Below, piece by piece: positions 2,949 to 59,830 of a stretch of 64,000 nucleotides of DNA. Origin of the DNA: Dehalococcoidia bacterium (GTDB taxonomy: Bacteria; Chloroflexota; Dehalococcoidia; Lucifugimonadales; UBA1123); the NCBI GenBank assembly GCA_021295915.1, contig JAGWBK010000013.1, positions 940-64,939 of the forward strand, given 5' to 3'. Below the pieces are notes generated by a model. The model did not search any database. It worked only from the letters and a program-made list of their open reading frames with translations, and had not been told where the DNA came from. The position numbers and the translations under genes are program-made. Position 1 is the first letter of the stretch. Each line of letters opens with the position of its first letter.

Positions 2949-5861
2949 CTACTCCACCACCTGCATCATGTGCTCAGGAGCAGGAGTCAGTAGCTCAACC
3001 GGAATTGGCCTGTAGGTGCCTGAGTCGAGGGCCCAGAGGACTTCGAACTGGGTCGGACCTGATGGAGATTTATACTCGATGCGTAGGCGGTTCTGTCCTG
3101 GGGTGAGTCTGAGTTCGCCGGTCGTGGCCGTGTTGTCGCCGGGAGGGTCCTCGGCGACGAGGCGGTTGTTGACGTAGAGGGAAATCTCCCCATTGTGAGT
3201 GCGGCTGACTTTGAACCGATGAGCACCGAGCGTGTCGGTCCGGAGAGAGCCCTCCCAGACTGCTGTGTATGGGTGTGGAATGACCGGGCTGTAGTGGAAG
3301 AGGTCCATCGAGGGCGTGACCTGCATCGAGCCCGGGACTCCTGACGTACGTTCGCCCTCGAAGAAGCGTCCGGCGAGGCCCACTGGTCTGACAGAGCCAC
3401 GGTACAGCCTGCTGAATGGGATGGGTTCGCGGACACCGTCCTCGTTCTGCCATAGCACCCGAATTGAACCGTCAGGGCCTTCGATGTCGGCGACGATGGA
3501 TAACTCGTGCAGACCGGACGCGAGGGTCACTCGCGAGGTCGTCATGTTTGATTCCAGGACTCGCTGGCCGTTCAGATCGACGACGGCGTGGGAGCTGTCG
3601 AGCATGAACTCGTACTCGCCATATTCTGGTACATGCAGCGAGCCGGAGAGCGCGACACGGTACGGAAACTGCTCTGGGCCGGCGTCGGGGTGCCACGTCG
3701 AGTCCGTAACGCTGTCTCGCCTTCCGGGGACCTCGTTCCTGTTCACAGTGTACGTCGCGTCCAGACCCTGCCGAGAGGCAAGCTCCTCACGGCTGACGAA
3801 GCCGGTGTAGTACATCGGGTCGCCGCCAGCGGGCGCGGTCACGATGTTGAACTCGGCGTCGGGGTAGTAGGCCTTCATCACCTCCCAGAAGCCACGCTCA
3901 CGCGGTTCGAAGTAGGCGGCTGCGCCTCTCCAGACAAGCGTCGAGACGAGCGGCAGAGTCTCGGGAGCCTTCAGCACCTCGACCCTTGGATGGTTGGCGA
4001 GCAGCGTGCTGGTCAGGCCGAACAGGAACTGTCTCGACACCCACAGCGAGTAGCCGAGCCGTTGACGCTCGACCTGGCTACGCGCCATCAGCGTCTCGTC
4101 GGTCGAGAACCCCGCGTACACCCTGGGATCGTTCGCCTGGTCGCCAAAGTAGAGGTCGACGTTGAGGTACGCGACAATCCCCAGGAGAGCGAGGATAGCT
4201 GGCAGCGCGATTCGTCTCGCGAGACTCCACGGGACGTCTCTCCACGTTCGCCACAGCAGATCGATGACAAGTGCGGCCAGCGCTGCAACAGCCGGAATGA
4301 CCAGGATCGACCTCAGTGACTGGGGTGCCTCCCACGGCACGGTGAGGACGCCGGGGAGCACCATGAAGAACACCCAGAACGGCAGCATAAACAGCGCGAC
4401 GGACCGCCACCGGATCAGCGCGAAGAAGAAGCCGAGAACGAACAGCGCGCCGGTTATGCGGTCGAGCATCGGCGCGTTCGGCAGATTGTGTCGCGGGTTG
4501 GGGTCGCCCTCGACGTTGAACATGAGCACATGCATGTCCAGGCTGGAGAGGAGCCTGCTCCCCCAGTCCTCTCGTGGAGTCAGGTTGAACAGCGAGGTCG
4601 TCTCGGTTCGCTCAAAGAACTGCTCGGAATTCTCCATCGCGTACTGCGCGACGGGCGCTGCCACAAACAGAGTGAGAATCGCCATCGTCGCTATATTTGC
4701 CGCGTACGCCCTGAAGTTGGGGCGCGACACCAGCAGGTGCAGTAGAAGAATCAACCCGACCACTAGCGGGAACATCCTGAAAGGGGAGTAGAACCACATA
4801 CCCAGACCAAGGGACGCACCGGCGAATGCGAAGTCCGACGTTCGCCCGGTTCGTATCGCACGGAGCATCAGCCATCCGGTAAGGGCCGCGAATAGCACGC
4901 CGGTGATGCCGTGCATCCCGATGCGGCTCCAGTTGAGGTCCCAGCGCATGACGGCCACGAGGAATGCGGCAATCAGCGCAGCCGACGCCCCGAGCACATG
5001 ACGGACGAAAAGGAACGTGGCGACAATGCCCAGCAACCCGAACGCAGCGGCCACGAGTCTCGGCGTGGTGATTGCCACGCCCGCGAGCTTGACGACGGCA
5101 GCGATAGGCATCAGGAACATCGTCGGAAGATTAGTGGAGGGTTCATACACCGGAATCTGCCCGGGGTCACCTGCGTACTCGCGGGCATGGAACAGGTTGT
5201 CAGCCTCGTCGAACCAGAGCCCGGCGGGCAGGTCATCGAGGTTGTACAGCCGCAGTCCTGCTGCCAGCACGAGGATCGCCAACAGGACGAGCCACGGCAC
5301 TGTCGAACGCAGTCCGATATGCAGTCCGCCCGCGGCCTTCAGCCTGAGTATCAGTGCGGTCCACCGATTGTCCATGGCGGGAATGGCAGCCAGCGTGAGA
5401 GCGACTGCGGCTCCGAATGAGTACCAGGCGAGGGTCAGGCTCTCGGGCTCGTCGTGTCCGAAGTTGCGGAGCGCGACGAACATCAGGACGATGGAGCAGA
5501 GCGCGGCGAGGGCCCCGATCGTTCTCTCGTTCAGATCGACTCCGAAACGCGAGTTGGGGTCCGCTGGGAACCTACGGGAGTAGGGGCAGGTTTGAGACCT
5601 CCCTCTACCTGTAGAGGCGGCTCGCTCGTCCGTTGTCTGTTCTCGCCGTGTGTCCGCAAGCGCCAGGCACACTACAGCGATGACGAGCGGCGCAATGGCC
5701 CACTTCATGTCGTCAGCGCGTATGAAATGGTCTGCCAGAATGGCCAGGACGATGGCGGACGCGACGAGCGTGAACCTGACAGCCGCAGCGCGACCAAGCT
5801 GTTCACGAATGAGTTTGGGCCCAGGGCCGGAAGAGTCGGGAGGGTTATCCGGGGCGCTCAT
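2949..5861 (-). CDS. GT39/ArnT-like membrane glycosyltransferase fused to two C-terminal PA14-like domains
   Basis: About 12 TM segments with an ArnT/PMT-like N-half (LYNLDDLPAGLWFDEADN). The C-half has two PA14-like units (GLDATYTVN...GEYEFMLDS; GLAGRFFEGE...AVWEGSL...HRFKV). The start overlaps the upstream stop (ATGA). Confidence 0.75.
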   Translation of the reverse strand: MSAPDNPPDSSGPGPKLIREQLGRAAAVRFTLVASAIVLAILADHFIRADDMKWAIAPLVIAVVCLALADTRREQTTDERAASTGRGRSQTCPYSRRFPADPNSRFGVDLNERTIGALAALCSIVLMFVALRNFGHDEPESLTLAWYSFGAAVALTLAAIPAMDNRWTALILRLKAAGGLHIGLRSTVPWLVLLAILVLAAGLRLYNLDDLPAGLWFDEADNLFHAREYAGDPGQIPVYEPSTNLPTMFLMPIAAVVKLAGVAITTPRLVAAAFGLLGIVATFLFVRHVLGASAALIAAFLVAVMRWDLNWSRIGMHGITGVLFAALTGWLMLRAIRTGRTSDFAFAGASLGLGMWFYSPFRMFPLVVGLILLLHLLVSRPNFRAYAANIATMAILTLFVAAPVAQYAMENSEQFFERTETTSLFNLTPREDWGSRLLSSLDMHVLMFNVEGDPNPRHNLPNAPMLDRITGALFVLGFFFALIRWRSVALFMLPFWVFFMVLPGVLTVPWEAPQSLRSILVIPAVAALAALVIDLLWRTWRDVPWSLARRIALPAILALLGIVAYLNVDLYFGDQANDPRVYAGFSTDETLMARSQVERQRLGYSLWVSRQFLFGLTSTLLANHPRVEVLKAPETLPLVSTLVWRGAAAYFEPRERGFWEVMKAYYPDAEFNIVTAPAGGDPMYYTGFVSREELASRQGLDATYTVNRNEVPGRRDSVTDSTWHPDAGPEQFPYRVALSGSLHVPEYGEYEFMLDSSHAVVDLNGQRVLESNMTTSRVTLASGLHELSIVADIEGPDGSIRVLWQNEDGVREPIPFSRLYRGSVRPVGLAGRFFEGERTSGVPGSMQVTPSMDLFHYSPVIPHPYTAVWEGSLRTDTLGAHRFKVSRTHNGEISLYVNNRLVAEDPPGDNTATTGELRLTPGQNRLRIEYKSPSGPTQFEVLWALDSGTYRPIPVELLTPAPEHMMQVVE

Positions 5862-8143
5862 GCCGGAGCTTCGGTCTTCACCACACCGAGTTCGTACAAC
5901 TCGTCAATCTGGTCCGGGGTGTATCCGAGTTCATCCAGCACTTCCCTGGTGTGCTGGCCGAGAAGCGGTGTCGGTCGAGTCGGCAACGTGGTGGAACCGT
6001 CAAAGGCCACGAGGTTGCCGCTCATCTTCACCGGTCCCAGCGAGGGGTGGTCCAGTACGGTCGCCATTCGATTTGACTGCGTCTGCGGATCATCGAAGAA
6101 CCCGTTGACGTAGTTTTCGACCACCGGAGCACATGGGACGCCGTGCTGTCGGAGCGTATTCAGGACTTCACTGACCGTCATGTCAGCGATGGCACGCTCG
6201 GCCTGTTCCGAGCTCGATAGCCAAGTCAGTCCGGTTACAGGTGAATCGGCAGCTACCGCAATCCAGCCGTCCGATGCGCTGTACACTCGGCGAAGTGGGC
6301 TGACCCCGTACTGGTCGCTGTCCGGCAGCGGCCTGGGCGTCATGTCCTCGTACCGCATGAAGCCATCCATGCACATGAGAGATCCGGCAGCCAGCAAGCT
6401 GGTGTTGACCCGCTGGGCAGTCCCAAGTCGTTCCCGCGCCACCAGGCCGAGGACCGTGCCCAACGCCCCCAGCGCGCCACCTGTGTAGTCGCACGGGGCG
6501 AGCACACCCAGGTACACCGGAGGGTTATCGTACCCGCCCTGGGCGTGCTGGAGTCCTGTGATCGCCTGCGCGATCGGGTCGACTCCGGGACGGTGCGAGT
6601 ACGGTCCGTCCCATCCGTAAGCAGTGACGTGCGATTGGATTAGTCCGGGGTTGAGTTCGTTGAGCGTCTCGCTGTCCAGTCCCATGCGGTCTGTCGCGCC
6701 GGGCCTCATGTTGGCGAGAATGGCGTCAGAGGTGGCCGCTAGACGCCGGGCAACCTCCTTGCCCTCGTCGGTGCGCGTGTTGACCGAGACCGATATCTTG
6801 TTCGTGTTGTACGAGATGAAGCCCGCGCCCCCGGCTGGTCTGGAGATGTCGCCGTCCAGCGACTCGAACTTGACCATCTCAGCGTCGAGGTCAGCGAGAA
6901 GCCGCCCCGCAACCGGCCCGGCAATCACGTTGGTCATCTCCATGATGCGGACGCCAGAGAGCGGGAGGCTGGATTCACCCTCCTCTACCCCTGGGTTCCC
7001 GCTTTCCCGGGAATGACGGGACTGGGAGCGGTTCTCGTGTTCCCGGTAGGGGCGGGTTTGTAACCCGCCCACGCGTGGACCACGTACCTGTCCCGGGGTC
7101 GCGGCCAACTTGATGGGCAACCCCATCATCGCGGTGTCACCAAGCACAGGGTCGTCCAACTGCTGAACGAGGCCATCGTGGATGATCTGGGGGTCTGACA
7201 TCGCTTCCTGCGCGCTTCTTACGAGGTCGCACGGGACGTCGGCAGCCCACAGCTCTTCTATCCACTCGTCCGAGGGACGGGTACGGATCCTGTCGGCGAC
7301 TATGTCGAAGAGCCGCCTGCGAGCGTCCTCAGTAGCTGGCCAGCGGCCGTCGCCAAACTCTGGATTCATCGCGATGACGTCGGCGACGCCGATCACCACT
7401 GAGGCGAGGTCTACGAAACCGGAATGGATGCAGCCGATCTGGAGCCACTCACCGTCAGCGCACTCGAACACGCTGTAGAACGGTCCGCCGCCCTGTGGAG
7501 ACGGGAGCGCGTTCCGCGTGGGAATCGCGTCACTCACTGCCTTGGGCGTGTACAGCAGCGCACCCGCCATCAGCGAGGTCTCCACTCGCGAGCCGATGCC
7601 CGTCTTCTCGCGGCGGTAGATCGCGGCGCATATTCCCAACGCAGCGAGCATTCCAGCCCCTACGTACGCGATCGGATGGACCACGTGAATCGGTCCGCCA
7701 CGGTACGAGGGCTGGCTTGCAAGAACACCCGTCCGGGCTGCCACGAGGTCGTGGTCGGCAGGCTCGTCCTTCAGGGGACCGTCCGAGCCGTATGCGGTAA
7801 TCGAGCAGTGTATGAGCCGCTCGTTGTCAGACCTGAGACCGTCGATTCCGAGCTGGGCTCTCAGAGACGAGCCCGGAGCGAAGTCGTCGAGCACGATGTC
7901 CGCATCCGCACACAGTTCCCCAACGGCCTCTGGCGACGCGTCCGGGTCGAGCCTGAGCACCTCCTTGCCCCGGTCGTACACGGCGAAGATGCCGGGCATA
8001 CGCACCACGTCTTCGTCGTAGAAAGCAATGCGCACGACGCGAGCGCCGTTGTCAGCCAGGAACATCGAAGCGAGCCCACCGGCCAGCCCGGTCGACAGGT
8101 CTACGACCGTGATGCCGTCGAGGGCAGACGGAGTTTCAGGCAT
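5858..8143 (-). CDS. tandem family-III CoA-transferase (CaiB/BaiF) fusion protein
   Basis: Two full CoA-transferase III N-termini are present: LDGITVVDLSTGLAGGLASMFLADNGARVVRI, and PLSGVRIMEMTNVIAGPVAGRLLADLDAEMVKFE at about aa 395. The C-terminal LGQHTREVLDELGYTPDQIDEL occurs only once. The linker is encoded by Rep-C plus Rep-B. Confidence 0.8.
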   Translation of the reverse strand: MPETPSALDGITVVDLSTGLAGGLASMFLADNGARVVRIAFYDEDVVRMPGIFAVYDRGKEVLRLDPDASPEAVGELCADADIVLDDFAPGSSLRAQLGIDGLRSDNERLIHCSITAYGSDGPLKDEPADHDLVAARTGVLASQPSYRGGPIHVVHPIAYVGAGMLAALGICAAIYRREKTGIGSRVETSLMAGALLYTPKAVSDAIPTRNALPSPQGGGPFYSVFECADGEWLQIGCIHSGFVDLASVVIGVADVIAMNPEFGDGRWPATEDARRRLFDIVADRIRTRPSDEWIEELWAADVPCDLVRSAQEAMSDPQIIHDGLVQQLDDPVLGDTAMMGLPIKLAATPGQVRGPRVGGLQTRPYREHENRSQSRHSRESGNPGVEEGESSLPLSGVRIMEMTNVIAGPVAGRLLADLDAEMVKFESLDGDISRPAGGAGFISYNTNKISVSVNTRTDEGKEVARRLAATSDAILANMRPGATDRMGLDSETLNELNPGLIQSHVTAYGWDGPYSHRPGVDPIAQAITGLQHAQGGYDNPPVYLGVLAPCDYTGGALGALGTVLGLVARERLGTAQRVNTSLLAAGSLMCMDGFMRYEDMTPRPLPDSDQYGVSPLRRVYSASDGWIAVAADSPVTGLTWLSSSEQAERAIADMTVSEVLNTLRQHGVPCAPVVENYVNGFFDDPQTQSNRMATVLDHPSLGPVKMSGNLVAFDGSTTLPTRPTPLLGQHTREVLDELGYTPDQIDELYELGVVKTEAPA

Positions 8144-42626: not shown

Positions 42627-42698
42627 AAGTCCCCTCTCCCTCAGGGAGAGGGTTAGGGTGAGGGTGAAAACACTGCCTATCAAACTGACACAAGCTCC
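42627..42698. repeat. Rep-A long form
   Basis: AAGTCCCCTCTCCCTCAGGGAGAGGGTTAGGGTGAGGGTGAAAACACTGCCTATCAAACTGACACAAGCTC. Confidence 0.85.
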
Positions 42699-52574: not shown

Positions 52575-52705
52575 CCGTCGTTCCGGCGAAGGCCGGAACC
52601 CACGAAGTGGCTCGCCGCTCGGCAATCCAGAGGGATGGGGTGTCCTTCGACAAGCTCAGGACGAACGAATTGTCGGTTTACCTAACCCCGTAGCAAGGGG
52701 GAGGA
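52575..52705 (+). repeat. Rep-F element, copy 1
   Basis: CCGTCGTTCCGGCGAAGGCCGGAACCCACGAAGTGGCTCGCCGCTCGGCAATCCAG...ACGAACGAATTGTCGGTTTACC is near-identical to 59666-59830. Confidence 0.85.
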
Positions 52706-53667: not shown

Positions 53668-53706
53668 GTAGGGGTGTAGACGGGCAGGTTTCAAACCTGC
53701 CCCTAC
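53668..53706. repeat. Rep-C palindromic element (coxS-coxM spacer)
   Basis: GTAGGGGtgtagacGGGCAGGTTTCAAACCTGCCCCTAC. Confidence 0.8.
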
Positions 53707-54725: not shown

Positions 54726-55275
54726 CCGGTTGACTCTAATCCTCTAAAGGGTCGTTAACTGAATAGTCCGTCCTCGTGCAACGTCACCCTGTCGATCTGG
54801 TAAATGGTCTCCTGCAGGCTAGCGACGATACGACAGTAGTTGTCCAAGTCTTCAAGCGTATGGGAACGACCTTTACAGTTCTTCAGGCACTGCTTTTGGA
54901 TCTGAAGCTACTCTTGCTGATGTAGGCTCGACCTTGCTTAGAGGGTGGCCAAATGTCTACCTTGATCGTAGCCACATTGGAACACTTGTGTCAATCGAAG
55001 TCGTTGTCCTCAGCGGTCCAAATGCACAATCCGTTGCAAGTTCGTCACTCCCGCAAAAGCGGGAGTCCAGTGGGGTGAGGGGGGATTGCCGAGCGACGCG
55101 CCACTTTGTGGATCTCTGCGATCGGGGGAATGCGAAAACAGGACGATGGTAGTGGACGAGGTGTGGATTCTCGTTCCCCATTTCCACGGGGACAAGCTTC
55201 GTGGGAATGACGGGTGAGGCAGCGGGAAAGGTGGGCGGGGTGGCAGGAATTGCGAGTGGTGTATGGGAGGCAACA

Positions 55276-55563
55276 TCAGCAGATCTCTTTGTAGAGGTCT
55301 AGCCACCTTGGATTTTCTTTCTCGATCAGTTCGATCTTCCATACTCGTCTCCACTTCTTGAGGGCGTTTTCTCTGAGTATGGCGCTTTCCATGGTCTCGT
55401 GGACTTCGTACCAGACGAGGTTGTGGACGTTGTAGCGCTTGGTGAATCCCTCTGCGAGGTTGTTCTTGTGCTGCCAGACGCGTTGTATGAGGTCGGAGGT
55501 TACTCCGATGTATAGGGTGCCATTGCGTTTGTTCGCAAGGATGTAGACGCAGGGGAGTTTCAT
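55276..55563 (-). CDS. GIY-YIG nuclease family protein (UPF0213-type)
   Basis: MKLPCVYILANKRNGTLYIGVTSDLIQRVWQHK...ENALKKW. Only the last 95 codons of the 266-codon ORF are genic. Confidence 0.88.
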   Translation of the reverse strand: MKLPCVYILANKRNGTLYIGVTSDLIQRVWQHKNNLAEGFTKRYNVHNLVWYEVHETMESAILRENALKKWRRVWKIELIEKENPRWLDLYKEIC

Positions 55564-55639
55564 GTTGGTTCTCCAGGGTGTGTTTTCTGCTCTCGTTATT
55601 CGCCGGAATGGGGCGTCGGGGGTGTCGAAGGGCGAGGTG

Positions 55640-55925
55640 TGTGGGCGAGGTGTGGATTCCCGCTTCCGCAGGAATGACGGGTGGAGGGCCGGGAATGACG
55701 TGTGGAGGTGTTGGGATTGACGAGTGGGGTGGTGGATATTAGGGGCTGGGGTACCGGGTGTATCGAATGGGGTGCGAGGAATGGCTACTGGGCGTGGGGA
55801 TGGACAATGTGAGTAGGCGAGGTGTGGGTTCCCGCTTTCGCGGGAATGACTAGGGGAGGATAGGGAATGACGAGTGGGGAGCCGGGGGTGACGGATGGAG
55901 GTTCGAGGGTGACGAACGGAGGTCT
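55640..55925 (+). repeat. G-rich degenerate tandem array of ~21-nt units derived from the Rep-B right arm
   Basis: GGGAATGACG-like cores occur at 55671, 55691 and 55713, then at 55842, 55863, 55884 and 55905, with a 20-22 nt period. Confidence 0.7.
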
Positions 55926-55964
55926 GGGTATGTCTATTGTGGAGTTGTATGGAGTGCAATGGGG

Positions 55965-57371
55965 TTAGACCCATATCTTGGTGATTCTTCGGTTGATGAG
56001 TTGGGTGATGGCCCAGACGAGGGCGTCCATGCGGTCGGGGGAGACGTCGGCTGGGCCCTTTGGGGTCCAGGTGCACATCTGGTCTTCGAGGTCGGGGAAG
56101 GTGCCGACGTGGTGGACCTTGCCCTGTTCGTAGAGTGCTGCGACCGGCTCGGCTCGGGCGTACTTGCCTCGGCTGGCATTCACCGACACGTACCTGAAGG
56201 TCTGTCGGCCGGATGCGGTGCGCAGCACCTCTTTCACAAGGTCGCCGCCGTTGTTGACCTCTCCTATGATCCGGTCGGCGCTGTGCTTGTCGTAGAGGGC
56301 TATGGCTCGCTCTGCCCAGCTGTTGGGAGACATTCGGCCTGAGCCGTCGGCGATGACGTAGTAGTGCTTGTCGGAGTCGACTCCGGCGACGACTATGCCG
56401 GTCTCGTCGCTTCGGGCGTTGGATGTTACCGCGGGGTCTATGGCTACGACGACCTGCGCAAGACTTTCGGGAGCAGTCTTTAGCCGTGCGTCGTCAATCC
56501 ACTGTCTCTCCCAGAGGGCGTCCTCTGACTGGTCGAGGAGGTCTGCGTGTATTTCCTGTCTTCCGGTGCGGGTGCCCTCGTACTGCGCCCTGATGTTGGA
56601 GTAGAAGCTGGGTGCCAAGTTGTCCTCGTTGTCGTAGGTGGTGCCTCGTGTGACCACCACGTCGGGTCGGGCTACAAGCTCTCTGAGTAGGGCTACCGGC
56701 TTGGGAGTGGTGGTGACCACACAGCGGGGATCGGAGCCGAGCCTAAGGGCGAACGCTAGGTTGTCCCACGTGTCGCGAGGGTACTTCCAAGATGCGAGCT
56801 CGTCGCACCATGCAGCGTCGAACTGCGGGCCTCTGAGCTGGTCGGGCTCGTAGCTTGAGAAGAGGAACGCTGTTGCTCCGTTGGGCCACGTCAGCTTTCG
56901 CTTAGTGGACTCGTACTCGGGCATTGCCCATGGAGGGCAGATGCTGAGGATGCCGGACTCGCCCTGGATCATGGTGTCCCTGATCTCGGCGGGAGTGCGG
57001 GCGACAAGGGCGATTCTGCCAGCTTTGCCTGATTCGACCTGTGATCGTACCCACTCTGCGCCGGTGCGTGTCTTTCCGAAGCCGCGTCCGGCGAGGAGTA
57101 TCCACGCGGTCCAGAGTCCGTCGGGCGGAGTCTGGTTCTCCCTGGCCATTAGCGGCCAGCGGTACCTGAAGCGCAGGTGTGGGTCGGGCGGCAGTGTGTG
57201 CCGCATCGACAGTGTGGCGTCGATGCGGGCGTCGTCCTGTGAGACGGAGTCGAGACGTGCGTTGAGTCGGGGTTTAGTGGACATAGCTACTGCCTGGTCA
57301 GGGGAAGTGGCCCGAGTTGGGGCCTGCGCCGTACTGGACGGAGCCTCTGAACCTGCCCCTGTCTTCGTCAT
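55965..57371 (-). CDS. phage terminase large subunit (GTA/TerL type)
   Basis: WILLAGRGFGKTRTGAEWV (Walker A) plus a C-terminal nuclease half. An alternative start at ATG 57284 would remove the 74-nt overlap with the upstream ORF. Confidence 0.8.
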   Translation of the reverse strand: MTKTGAGSEAPSSTAQAPTRATSPDQAVAMSTKPRLNARLDSVSQDDARIDATLSMRHTLPPDPHLRFRYRWPLMARENQTPPDGLWTAWILLAGRGFGKTRTGAEWVRSQVESGKAGRIALVARTPAEIRDTMIQGESGILSICPPWAMPEYESTKRKLTWPNGATAFLFSSYEPDQLRGPQFDAAWCDELASWKYPRDTWDNLAFALRLGSDPRCVVTTTPKPVALLRELVARPDVVVTRGTTYDNEDNLAPSFYSNIRAQYEGTRTGRQEIHADLLDQSEDALWERQWIDDARLKTAPESLAQVVVAIDPAVTSNARSDETGIVVAGVDSDKHYYVIADGSGRMSPNSWAERAIALYDKHSADRIIGEVNNGGDLVKEVLRTASGRQTFRYVSVNASRGKYARAEPVAALYEQGKVHHVGTFPDLEDQMCTWTPKGPADVSPDRMDALVWAITQLINRRITKIWV

Positions 57372-58479
57372 GAAGTCTGCAGTCGGGATGTCCGCAGTCG
57401 ATGTAGATCGACCTTCCGAGCTCGAACATCAGCTTTCGTCTGTGCTTTGAGCGAGTGGGAGGACCGGGTTCGGGTTCCGGGGTGGATTCAGACTGCTGAA
57501 CCTCTTCCGCCACGGCTGACTGACGCTCGGCTTCTTCTTTCTCTCTGCGTTCTCTGTCGGCTTTGATCTGCTTTCGGCGTTCGATCTTGGTGTCGATCAT
57601 TGCATTGAACTCGCCGAGTTCTCTGGCGACGATGGCCTCGTATTCTTCAGGGTCCAGTGAGTTCTTCCACTCGTAGAACCACTTCTCGGAGTTCTCCCAT
57701 GCCTGGTCGTAGGCGGAGAGATCGCGTTCATAGGGTGGATTGTCGGGGTGCTGTTTGGCGAGTTCTGCCTTTATGCGGTCGTCTTCGTCGAGGATTGGTG
57801 TGACCAGTTCGATGAAGGCTGACCAGTCGGTGTCGTCTTCTGTGGGGGTGGGGGTGTCTGACCCCGTATCGGAGTACGGGGTGACGTTACTTTGATTTGT
57901 CGGATTAGGGGATTTTTCTGATTTTGTTGGTTGGGGGCTTGGTTTTGAGGTGTGGGGTGGGGTTGGTTGGTAGTCCTGGTTTTCTCCCCCGTATCGAGTA
58001 CGGGGCAGGCTCTCACCCCAGCCCTCTCCCGCTGGGAGAGGGGGTCTTTGTCTTGCGTGTTTGCCGAAGCCTCGGGTTAGGAGTTCTCTGGCTGCTGAGA
58101 TGCGGTGGTGGGGTTTGAAGGCTTTGAGTTGGCCTTCCATGACGTTGATCAGGAAGCGGCAGACTTTGGCTCCATCATCGGTGGACTCTTGGATCTTCTT
58201 GGCTAGGGCGAGGTCGAACTCGGAGTCGTCTGGGGAGCTGGAATCTGTCCTGTGTCGGGATGGCTCGCGTGGGTTGTCGAGGATGAAGGCGATGGCCTGG
58301 CCACGTTCCGTCGTGGCGGGTCCGCGGCAGTTGCAGCCGTACTTCGTGAGGAGCCGTGCGGCGTCGAGCCTGTGGCACAGCTTGAAGTCGGGGCGTTCTT
58401 CCCTCATGACTTCGATTAGGAAGTCTATGATGAGGTCGCCGTTGTCTGTCTTTGCCTGGATTCTTTGGGCTAGGTTCAT
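57298..58479 (-). CDS. hypothetical phage-associated protein (duplicated N-terminal helical module; possible small-terminase role); central part built from palindromic repeats
   Basis: Duplicated LAQRIQAKTDNGDLIIDFLIEVM / LAKKIQESTDDGAKVCRFLINVM modules. Rep-A and two Rep-D copies lie in-frame at 57860-58047. Confidence 0.5.
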   Translation of the reverse strand: MNLAQRIQAKTDNGDLIIDFLIEVMREERPDFKLCHRLDAARLLTKYGCNCRGPATTERGQAIAFILDNPREPSRHRTDSSSPDDSEFDLALAKKIQESTDDGAKVCRFLINVMEGQLKAFKPHHRISAARELLTRGFGKHARQRPPLPAGEGWGESLPRTRYGGENQDYQPTPPHTSKPSPQPTKSEKSPNPTNQSNVTPYSDTGSDTPTPTEDDTDWSAFIELVTPILDEDDRIKAELAKQHPDNPPYERDLSAYDQAWENSEKWFYEWKNSLDPEEYEAIVARELGEFNAMIDTKIERRKQIKADRERREKEEAERQSAVAEEVQQSESTPEPEPGPPTRSKHRRKLMFELGRSIYIDCGHPDCRLHDEDRGRFRGSVQYGAGPNSGHFP

Positions 58480-58812
58480 TATGGATCTCTAATAGTACTG
58501 ATGTTCTGTTATTGATAGTACCGGTGTGGTGGTCTGGCGTCAAGGGATTGCCTGACCCCTGCGTGTGGATTCCCGCTCCCCGTTTCCACGGGGACATGCT
58601 TCGTGGGAATGACGGGTGAGCGCAGATAGTAGAGGCGGAATGCTCTTAGCGCGACGTGTCTCCTATGGGGGCCCGCGTGCGGGCAGTACAAGTTTCGTTG
58701 ACAGCCCTTGGGTGCTGGAATACACTCGCTCCACCCCGTATCTCAGTACGGGGTGACGCTTTTATGGCCCGGCTGATTTGGCCCGTCGCGGTGGGCCGGG
58801 CGGCCACAGGAG

Positions 58813-59665: not shown

Positions 59666-59830
59666 CCGTCATTCCGGCGGAGGCCGGAACCCACGAAGTG
59701 GCTCGCCGCTCGGCAATCCAGGGGATGGGGACGTCCTTCGACAGGCTCAGAGCCTGCGCTGGACTTGATCCGGTGACGAACGAATTGTCGGTTTACCCAC
59801 CCCTGTCTGCCCAACGAGGGAGTAGGGGCT
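59666..59830 (+). repeat. Rep-F element, copy 2, with nested Rep-G hairpin
   Basis: It matches 52575-52705 and adds an extra AGCCTGCGCTGGACTTGATCCGGTG (59751-59775). Confidence 0.85.

Follow-up and report, generated by a model that had tools for sequence, protein, structure and literature searches.

A class of two-domain CoA-transferases, of which 2,401 were counted in 2017, includes DddD and PtmU4 as its characterised examples; the linker between the two domains is poorly conserved in this class, the catalytic Asp is conserved in the C-terminal unit, and DddD is placed as an outgroup to the other two-domain enzymes (PMC6006322). CaiB/BaiF paralogues with best matches to DddD have already been noted in SAR202 genomes (PMC5395668). 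In this work, we analysed a stretch of 64,000 nucleotides from a Dehalococcoidia bacterium (assembly GCA_021295915.1, contig JAGWBK010000013.1, positions 940 to 64,939 of the forward strand; hereafter the window), in which the open reading frame (ORF) 5858-8143 of the minus strand encodes a 761-aa protein with two family III CoA-transferase units and an inter-domain linker mostly derived from two short palindromic repeats, Rep-C and Rep-B. The Neisseria repeat NTS has the published definition CGTCATTCCCGCGMAVGCGGGAATCYRG; the same work also defined a degenerate "Ssn-related motif" (SRM) and reported that such hairpins flank the genes of small GIY-YIG single-stranded DNA (ssDNA) nucleases (SsnA) in several phyla (PMC11893778). 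An earlier note on this DNA had proposed that the repeats replaced the 3' end, the stop codon and the spacer of a first gene and thereby made the fusion. Our analysis refutes that proposal and leads us to a different reading, to which we assign a probability of roughly 0.85: the fusion is ancient and the repeats are secondary colonists of its linker.

The ORF is a genuine single gene, listed as one uninterrupted chain of 761 aa, and the protein is 100% identical to an NCBI protein from a metagenome-assembled genome (MAG) named 'CoA transferase [Dehalococcoidia bacterium]'. As a whole, it matches the CaiB/BaiF/Frc (type III) profile PF02515 (CoA_transf_3) with E=1.8e-146, and the profile aligns first to aa 8-356 (profile positions 1 to about 358 of 366) and then, separately, to the C-terminal half. 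Both units belong to the family, with 234 bits for unit 1 and 260 bits for unit 2 at a curated cut-off of 23.3, and they share 28% identity; every match of the 761-aa protein to the NCBIfam equivalog profiles lies far under the cut-off. Unit 1 (aa 1-356; 7076-8143, minus strand) ends in ...PIKLAATPGQVRGP and lacks both the catalytic Asp and the C-terminal LGxHTxEVL helix. It is followed by the linker (aa 357-393; 6965-7075, minus strand), which reads RVGGLQTRPYREHENRSQSRHSRESGNPGVEEGESSL, and by unit 2 (aa 394-761 plus stop; 5858-6964, minus strand), a complete CoA_transf_3 unit that has its catalytic Asp at residue 552 (codon 6488-6490) and retains the helix, LLGQHTREVL, within the sequence LLGQHTREVLDELGY... 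as aligned to SUGCT. On these points, namely two units in one ORF and the helix kept only by the second, the earlier note was right, and its coordinates hold to within a few bases. The missing C-terminus of unit 1 was not found in another frame across 6900-7200, where the other two frames are interrupted by stops. Separate translation of unit 2 from an internal start is unlikely, as the stretch from the repeats to the conserved N-terminal strand has no in-frame ATG, GTG or TTG; the sole GTG encodes Val358, where the repeat segment begins, and a start at the ATGs of RIMEM would cut strand 1 short.

The two-unit arrangement is shared widely among relatives. More than 100 full-length homologues (736-818 aa, 51-100% identity), all with both units, were returned by a whole-protein database search from Dehalococcoidia and SAR202 assemblies, and 80 further loci in species-representative genomes, at 42-94% identity, likewise span both units. 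An alignment of 36 homologues displays two well-conserved units on either side of a hypervariable linker, which ranges from 26 to 70 aa across the family with little sequence conservation. A census of 90 loci showed every linker to be in frame and stop-free; no repeat was detected in 69 of them, whose median length is 99 nt, and the 21 with repeats have a median of 132 nt and reach 198 nt. Detection in divergent linkers was motif-based, so that "repeat-free" is to be read as "no detected repeat". The 210-nt linker of one orthologue (L010), for example, contains Rep-B-like copies that were overlooked by the motif scans.

In 30 of the most distant loci, unit 1 is directly followed by GQHTxxVL, which is what remains of the lost helix. 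This remnant is kept in relatives at about 42-52% identity, and repeat-free relatives at 54-71% identity are already without the helix, from which it follows that the loss of the helix predates the repeats. A repeat insertion that fused two adjacent CoA-transferase genes in this lineage would fit a linker that is almost wholly repeat-derived, a first unit without its C-terminal helix, and repeat-bearing linkers that are longer than repeat-free ones. However, the fusion without detected repeats in 69 of the 90 loci, down to 42% identity, and the distant relatives that keep the helix remnant inside a fused chain make such an origin very improbable. Comparison with related genomes was the test that the earlier note itself had named, and its causal claim fails on it. 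Two more results go against a repeat-made fusion. Outside Chloroflexota, a plasmid of Rhodococcus encodes a 'CoA transferase' of 758 aa that is collinear with the protein at 32% identity and has its units in matching order, the unit-wise best matches being reciprocal (147 bits for unit 1 with unit 1 vs 70; 213 for unit 2 with unit 2 vs 117). Moreover, we saw no unfused orthologue: among the nine shorter database matches checked (568-671 aa), none was demonstrably split at the linker, eight span it and are shortened elsewhere, and the ninth (P0095) was not placed by the motif search. It is because the same fusion occurs without a detected repeat in most loci, and with a remnant helix in 30 distant ones, that we regard the fusion as ancient and the repeats as secondary.

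The window comes from a MAG, and short repeats can cause misjoins, such that a locus with two genes, or with a frameshift or stop, might have been misassembled into one ORF. This is extremely improbable, as an independent ENA assembly (P0002) encodes a near-identical 761-aa protein with the same linker, long-read chromosome-scale assemblies (L011 and L002, the latter a 4.18-Mb contig, among them) agree in gene order and have linkers that bear repeats and stay in frame, and all 90 linkers are open.

The nucleophilic aspartate of the family is Asp169 in Frc and CaiB. In SUGCT the catalytic residue is Asp212 (PMC10871334). Asp552 of unit 2 aligns to it, and Asp occupies this position in all 36 aligned sequences. 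In unit 1, the counterpart of Asp156 in MCR and of Asp212 in SUGCT is Ala159-Tyr160, Tyr160 being opposite the catalytic Asp; position 159 is Ala in 35 of the 36 sequences, and position 160 is Tyr, Ser or Cys, never Asp. The catalytic Asp that marks family III is thus present in unit 2 and absent from unit 1, whose closest solved relatives are Far/MCR racemases and a formyl-CoA transferase. Given the missing Asp, unit 1 is probably a non-catalytic partner; the earlier description of two enzymes in one ORF appears overstated, in that the two units stand while a second enzyme is doubtful. AlphaFold2, run with the family alignment, gave a model with a mean predicted local distance difference test (pLDDT) of 89 and a predicted template-modelling (pTM) score of 0.92. 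Its pLDDT falls below 50 solely at aa 363-390, the repeat-derived stretch, so that this part of the linker is predicted to be disordered, a check that the earlier note had suggested. A Foldseek search of the PDB with this model placed SUGCT, Frc, BbsEF and CaiB as best matches, with target-normalised TM scores of 0.7-0.8, as expected of the family fold, in which a small domain accompanies a large one of the Rossmann type. No solved two-domain chain was found in the PDB, where all sequence matches are of 359-456 aa. On the model, the usual dimer of the family is probably mimicked within a single chain, with one unit folded onto the other.

The linker is a translation of two repeat copies, as the earlier note had stated. 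The Rep-C copy, GGGCGGGTTACAAACCCGCCCCTAC (7046-7070, minus strand), has a truncated 5' arm, forms a perfect 9-bp stem with a 3-nt loop at 7050-7070 and is translated as GGLQTRPY; its full-length form in relatives is GTAGGGGCGGGTTTGAAACCCGCCCCTAC. The Rep-B copy has the core GTCATTCCCGGGAAAGCGGGAACCC at 6993-7017 (minus strand) and, in the extent of the published degenerate SRM pattern, reads CGTCATTCCCGGGAAAGCGGGAACCCAG (6991-7018, minus strand), translated as RHSRESGNP. Both repeats recur in the window: Rep-C at 53682-53706 (plus strand) and 5580-5604 (minus strand), and Rep-B copies or variants at 2879-2903, 55826-55850 and 55654-55678 (minus strand) and at 52577, 55044 and 59668 (plus strand). 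Dinucleotide shuffles gave 0 expected matches at ≤3 mismatches, and the other copies come from a scan at ≤6 mismatches run without a shuffle control. The Rep-C hairpin was considered as an intrinsic terminator and rejected, since no U-run follows it. No Rfam family matched anywhere in the window at gathering thresholds, and a full-text literature search returned nothing for Rep-C or for the peptides VIPAKAGIQ, SFPRKRES and GRFETRPY.

For the Rep-B core, in turn, the full-text search had a sole match, in a Neisseria construct sequence, which provided the link to NTS/dRS3. The SRM pattern, a hairpin core with oriented flanks, matches the linker copy at 6991-7018 (minus strand) and four other sites of the window, with 0.95 expected (100 shuffles, maximum 4). 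At 55276-55563 (minus strand), a 95-aa ORF encodes a putative single-domain nuclease of the GIY-YIG type (PF01541, E=3.8e-17), with Rep-B/SRM copies upstream at 55654-55678 and 55824-55851 and downstream at 55043-55070, as well as GTCATTCCC half-sites in its flanks; this is the SRM-ssn-SRM layout described in PMC11893778. The mechanical ORF call, 55276-56076, extends through the upstream repeats, and searches of the PDB with the GIY-YIG ORF gave marginal matches only (UvrC, UPF0213; E about 0.1). Because the published pattern matches and the GIY-YIG ORF is flanked by such motifs, Rep-B is, as judged by sequence and genomic association, an SRM of the Neisseria NTS/dRS3 type. The GIY-YIG gene is probably its Ssn-type partner, a candidate by sequence and layout, and its protein may act on Rep-B.

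The repeat content of the linker changes from one orthologue to the next. At the DNA level, the window and L003 have Rep-C plus one Rep-B, L002 has one additional 36-nt Rep-B unit, L001 has two Rep-B copies and no Rep-C, L004 has variant copies of both, and L005 and L006 have no repeats. Besides the window, Rep-C occurs in the linkers of L002, L003, L004, L011 and L012, whereas those of L001 and L013-L018 lack it. In the clade at ≥76% identity, Rep-B is translated in frame 3, as (R)HSRESGNP; a separate clade, at 64-65% identity, uses frame 2, which gives PSFPRKRE, and often has two or three copies. Other elements occupy the same site: in L008, (CACTCCT)n heptamer arrays encode SHSSLLSTHSS twice, and in L009 an inverted pair, (AGGAGTK)n ... 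(MACTCCT)n, is translated through both arms of a long hairpin. The repeat units are simple hairpins of about 25-36 nt; target-site duplication was not evident in the orthologue alignment, in which no formal search for it was made. These differences in frame, element type and copy number point to several independent colonisations and to copy-number changes in multiples of about 33-36 nt. The tether is under no sequence constraint beyond staying open.

A second in-frame Rep-C copy, recovered in the looser scan and translated as GRGRSQTCPY, lies at 5580-5604 (minus strand) in the neighbouring PMT_2/PA14 glycosyltransferase gene (ORF 2949-5861), at a loop after the first predicted membrane helix. 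The window, L003 and L004 have this copy, L001 has a partial match (TCKL), and L002, L005 and L006 are without it. In-frame insertion into conserved genes, polymorphic among orthologues, is therefore seen both in the linker and in the PMT_2 gene.

We propose the following course of events. Two CaiB/Frc-type units would have been fused in tandem into one chain long before the present lineage, with a division of labour in which unit 2 alone kept the nucleophilic Asp (Asp552) and unit 1 lost its own. In the present branch, the C-terminal helix of unit 1 would have disappeared as well, so that what joined the units was a disordered tether of about 30 residues, free of constraint. In genomes with short hairpin repeats, copies may then have landed repeatedly in this tolerant tether or been duplicated within it. 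Such repeats presumably insert or duplicate at many sites, and selection would purge the copies that break reading frames or structured regions; copies in the tether would survive when in frame and stop-free, lengthening it to 37-70 residues, and would be translated as neutral filler (GGLQTRPY, RHSRESGNP). We further suggest, tentatively and at slightly less than even odds, that in uncultured Dehalococcoidia, marine ones included, the disordered tether is a recurrent landing and retention site for at least three kinds of repeat, namely SRMs, Rep-C hairpins and elements based on heptamers.

It could be asked whether the repeats have instead been co-opted, as translation-pausing mRNA hairpins, as a recombination or ssDNA-cleavage boundary of the Ssn/SRM kind that would allow the halves to be exchanged separately, or as a functional peptide. 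The predicted fold of the linker mRNA (-57 kcal/mol) includes stable hairpins at both Rep-C and Rep-B, although its z-score of -2.06 is weak; SRM/NTS repeats modulate the integration of transforming DNA in Neisseria (PMC11893778); and every linker Rep-B copy examined at the DNA level is in the orientation of the gene. The density of repeats in linkers also exceeds that in about 1.5 Mb of flanks by 45- to 115-fold, and strict SRM matches amount to 0.83 per kb in linkers vs 0.018 per kb in 1.48 Mb of flanks, ratios that are inflated by shared descent. However, most members of the family have no repeat at all, the repeat segment is predicted to be disordered, and even orthologues at 87-94% identity differ freely in the type, number, frame and sequence of their repeats, such that co-option appears unlikely.

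Some points weigh against our preferred reading of an ancient fusion colonised secondarily by repeats. Motif-based detection could miss decayed repeat copies in the divergent linkers. The number of insertion events is deduced from frame, element type and presence or absence, with no formal phylogenetic reconstruction, and some of the differences could be losses. The probable intramolecular dimer is drawn from one AlphaFold2 model, and the assignment of the GIY-YIG ORF to the Ssn clade (cd10448) is putative, coming from PF01541 and the layout. Finally, a role for the repeat-derived peptide or the mRNA hairpins is possible, though not favoured.

The CoA-transferase gene lies in a conserved order, AlkZ-like / Mo-oxidoreductase / CoA-transferase / PMT_2, which is found down to about 65% identity. 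Its stop overlaps the start of PMT_2 by 4 nt (ATGA; 5858-5861 of the window), as in most orthologues (L001-L006, L009 and L010), which suggests that the CoA-transferase and the membrane glycosyltransferase are co-transcribed, an unexplained pairing. Some genomes have two copies of the gene on different contigs or at distant positions (L016/L032, L043/L063 and L079/L080); the linkers of L016 and L032 are identical and repeat-bearing, possibly by recent duplication or as an assembly duplicate. Homologues at 46-47% identity also occur under non-Chloroflexota labels in an Entotheonellaceae MAG (L054) and a Proteobacteria MAG (L064), which could be horizontal transfer or binning error.

Elsewhere in the window, Rep-B variants of the form GTCRTTCCGGCGRAGGCCGGAACCC at 52577-52640 and 59668-59730 (both plus strand) have a common 3' flank of about 40 nt (ACGAAGTGGCTCGCCGCTCGGCAATCCAG..GGATGGGG), the first 12 nt of which also follow the Rep-B copy at 2879; this suggests that the variants at 52577 and 59668 are part of a longer composite element. 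Two more hairpin families were observed, CCCTCTCCC-N3-GGGAGAGGG in three copies (2154-2174, 42632-42652 and 58022-58042) and (C)ACCCCGTA-N6-TACGGGGT(G) in two (57861-57882 and 58732-58755), some of the copies being inside ORFs. The GIY-YIG gene is adjoined by a terminase large subunit gene (Terminase_6N/6C; 55965-57371, minus strand), upstream of which a 393-aa ORF (57298-58479, minus strand) has no Pfam match and contains peptides of the hairpin-repeat type (LPAGEGWGES, RTRYGGEN and TPYSDTGS). The region 55965-58479 may be the remnant of a prophage or of a gene transfer agent.

For annotation, the ORF 5858-8143 should be neither split nor cited as a repeat-made gene fusion, and the locus reveals no new mechanism of gene fusion. 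What it does illustrate is that short hairpin repeats, one family of them of the Ssn-nuclease-linked kind, can accumulate in frame in a tolerant disordered tether, where they inflate and diversify the linkers between close relatives; for studies of repeat movement, the locus is also convenient in that its orthologous sites include some that have repeats and others that do not. If the tether is indeed a recurrent landing and retention site, this would be the first documented case of NTS/SRM-type repeats translated inside a protein, an RPE-like phenomenon outside Rickettsia. The linkers with and without copies would then be a natural record of the spread of an SRM hairpin (unit about 33-36 nt, constant orientation), and orthologous linkers could be used to find out if the spread is driven by the co-resident GIY-YIG nuclease.

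Compared with the systems described so far, the 761-aa protein is an ordinary member of the two-domain class, with tandem CoA_transf_3 units that are conserved in relatives, a variable linker and the Asp in its C-terminal unit. It resembles DddD and PtmU4 in having these units in one chain of about 750-830 aa with a poorly conserved linker and a C-terminal-unit Asp, and differs from them in its neighbourhood (Mo-oxidoreductase and PMT_2), which is neither a dimethylsulfoniopropionate (DMSP) cluster nor a thioacid cluster, and in a linker derived from genomic hairpin repeats, unreported for either enzyme. No DMSP operon genes adjoin the CoA-transferase gene at the loci examined; for Rv1866, a tandem CaiB protein, a literature search gave no result. 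With BbsEF, the succinyl-CoA:(R)-benzylsuccinate CoA-transferase, the protein shares a pair of different family III units, both of which match its chains by sequence, as the model does by fold. BbsE and BbsF are, however, separate polypeptides, whereas the present units are covalently tethered and unit 1 is without its Asp.

As to the repeats, the closest parallels are the Rickettsia palindromic elements (RPEs) and the intragenic insertions of the kind of MITEs (miniature transposable elements with inverted repeats) and repetitive extragenic palindromic (REP)-like sequences, in which short palindromic repeats are likewise in frame, translated and tolerated off the functional core (PMC10969869). 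Unlike RPEs, of about 100-150 bp, the units here are of about 25-36 nt, belong to unrelated families, reside in a Chloroflexota host and include several element types stacked in a single inter-domain tether; neither the terminal inverted repeats nor the target-site duplications that would be expected of an RPE- or MITE-like element of about 100-400 bp were identified, no formal search for them having been made. With the Neisseria NTS/dRS3 repeats, Rep-B shares a sequence within 1-2 mismatches of the NTS consensus and an exact fit to the SRM pattern, and with the SsnA system the window shares a 95-aa single-domain GIY-YIG gene with motifs on both sides; the cd10448 family is described as abundant in Pseudomonadati and has homologues across bacterial phyla (PMC11893778). 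The differences from Neisseria are the host phylum and the location of one copy within a coding region, where it is translated. The two-domain class, in-frame palindromic repeats (Rickettsia RPEs; PMC10969869) and SRMs are all already known; what is mildly novel is their combination, with SRM-type and other repeats found recurrently in one protein linker of Chloroflexota.

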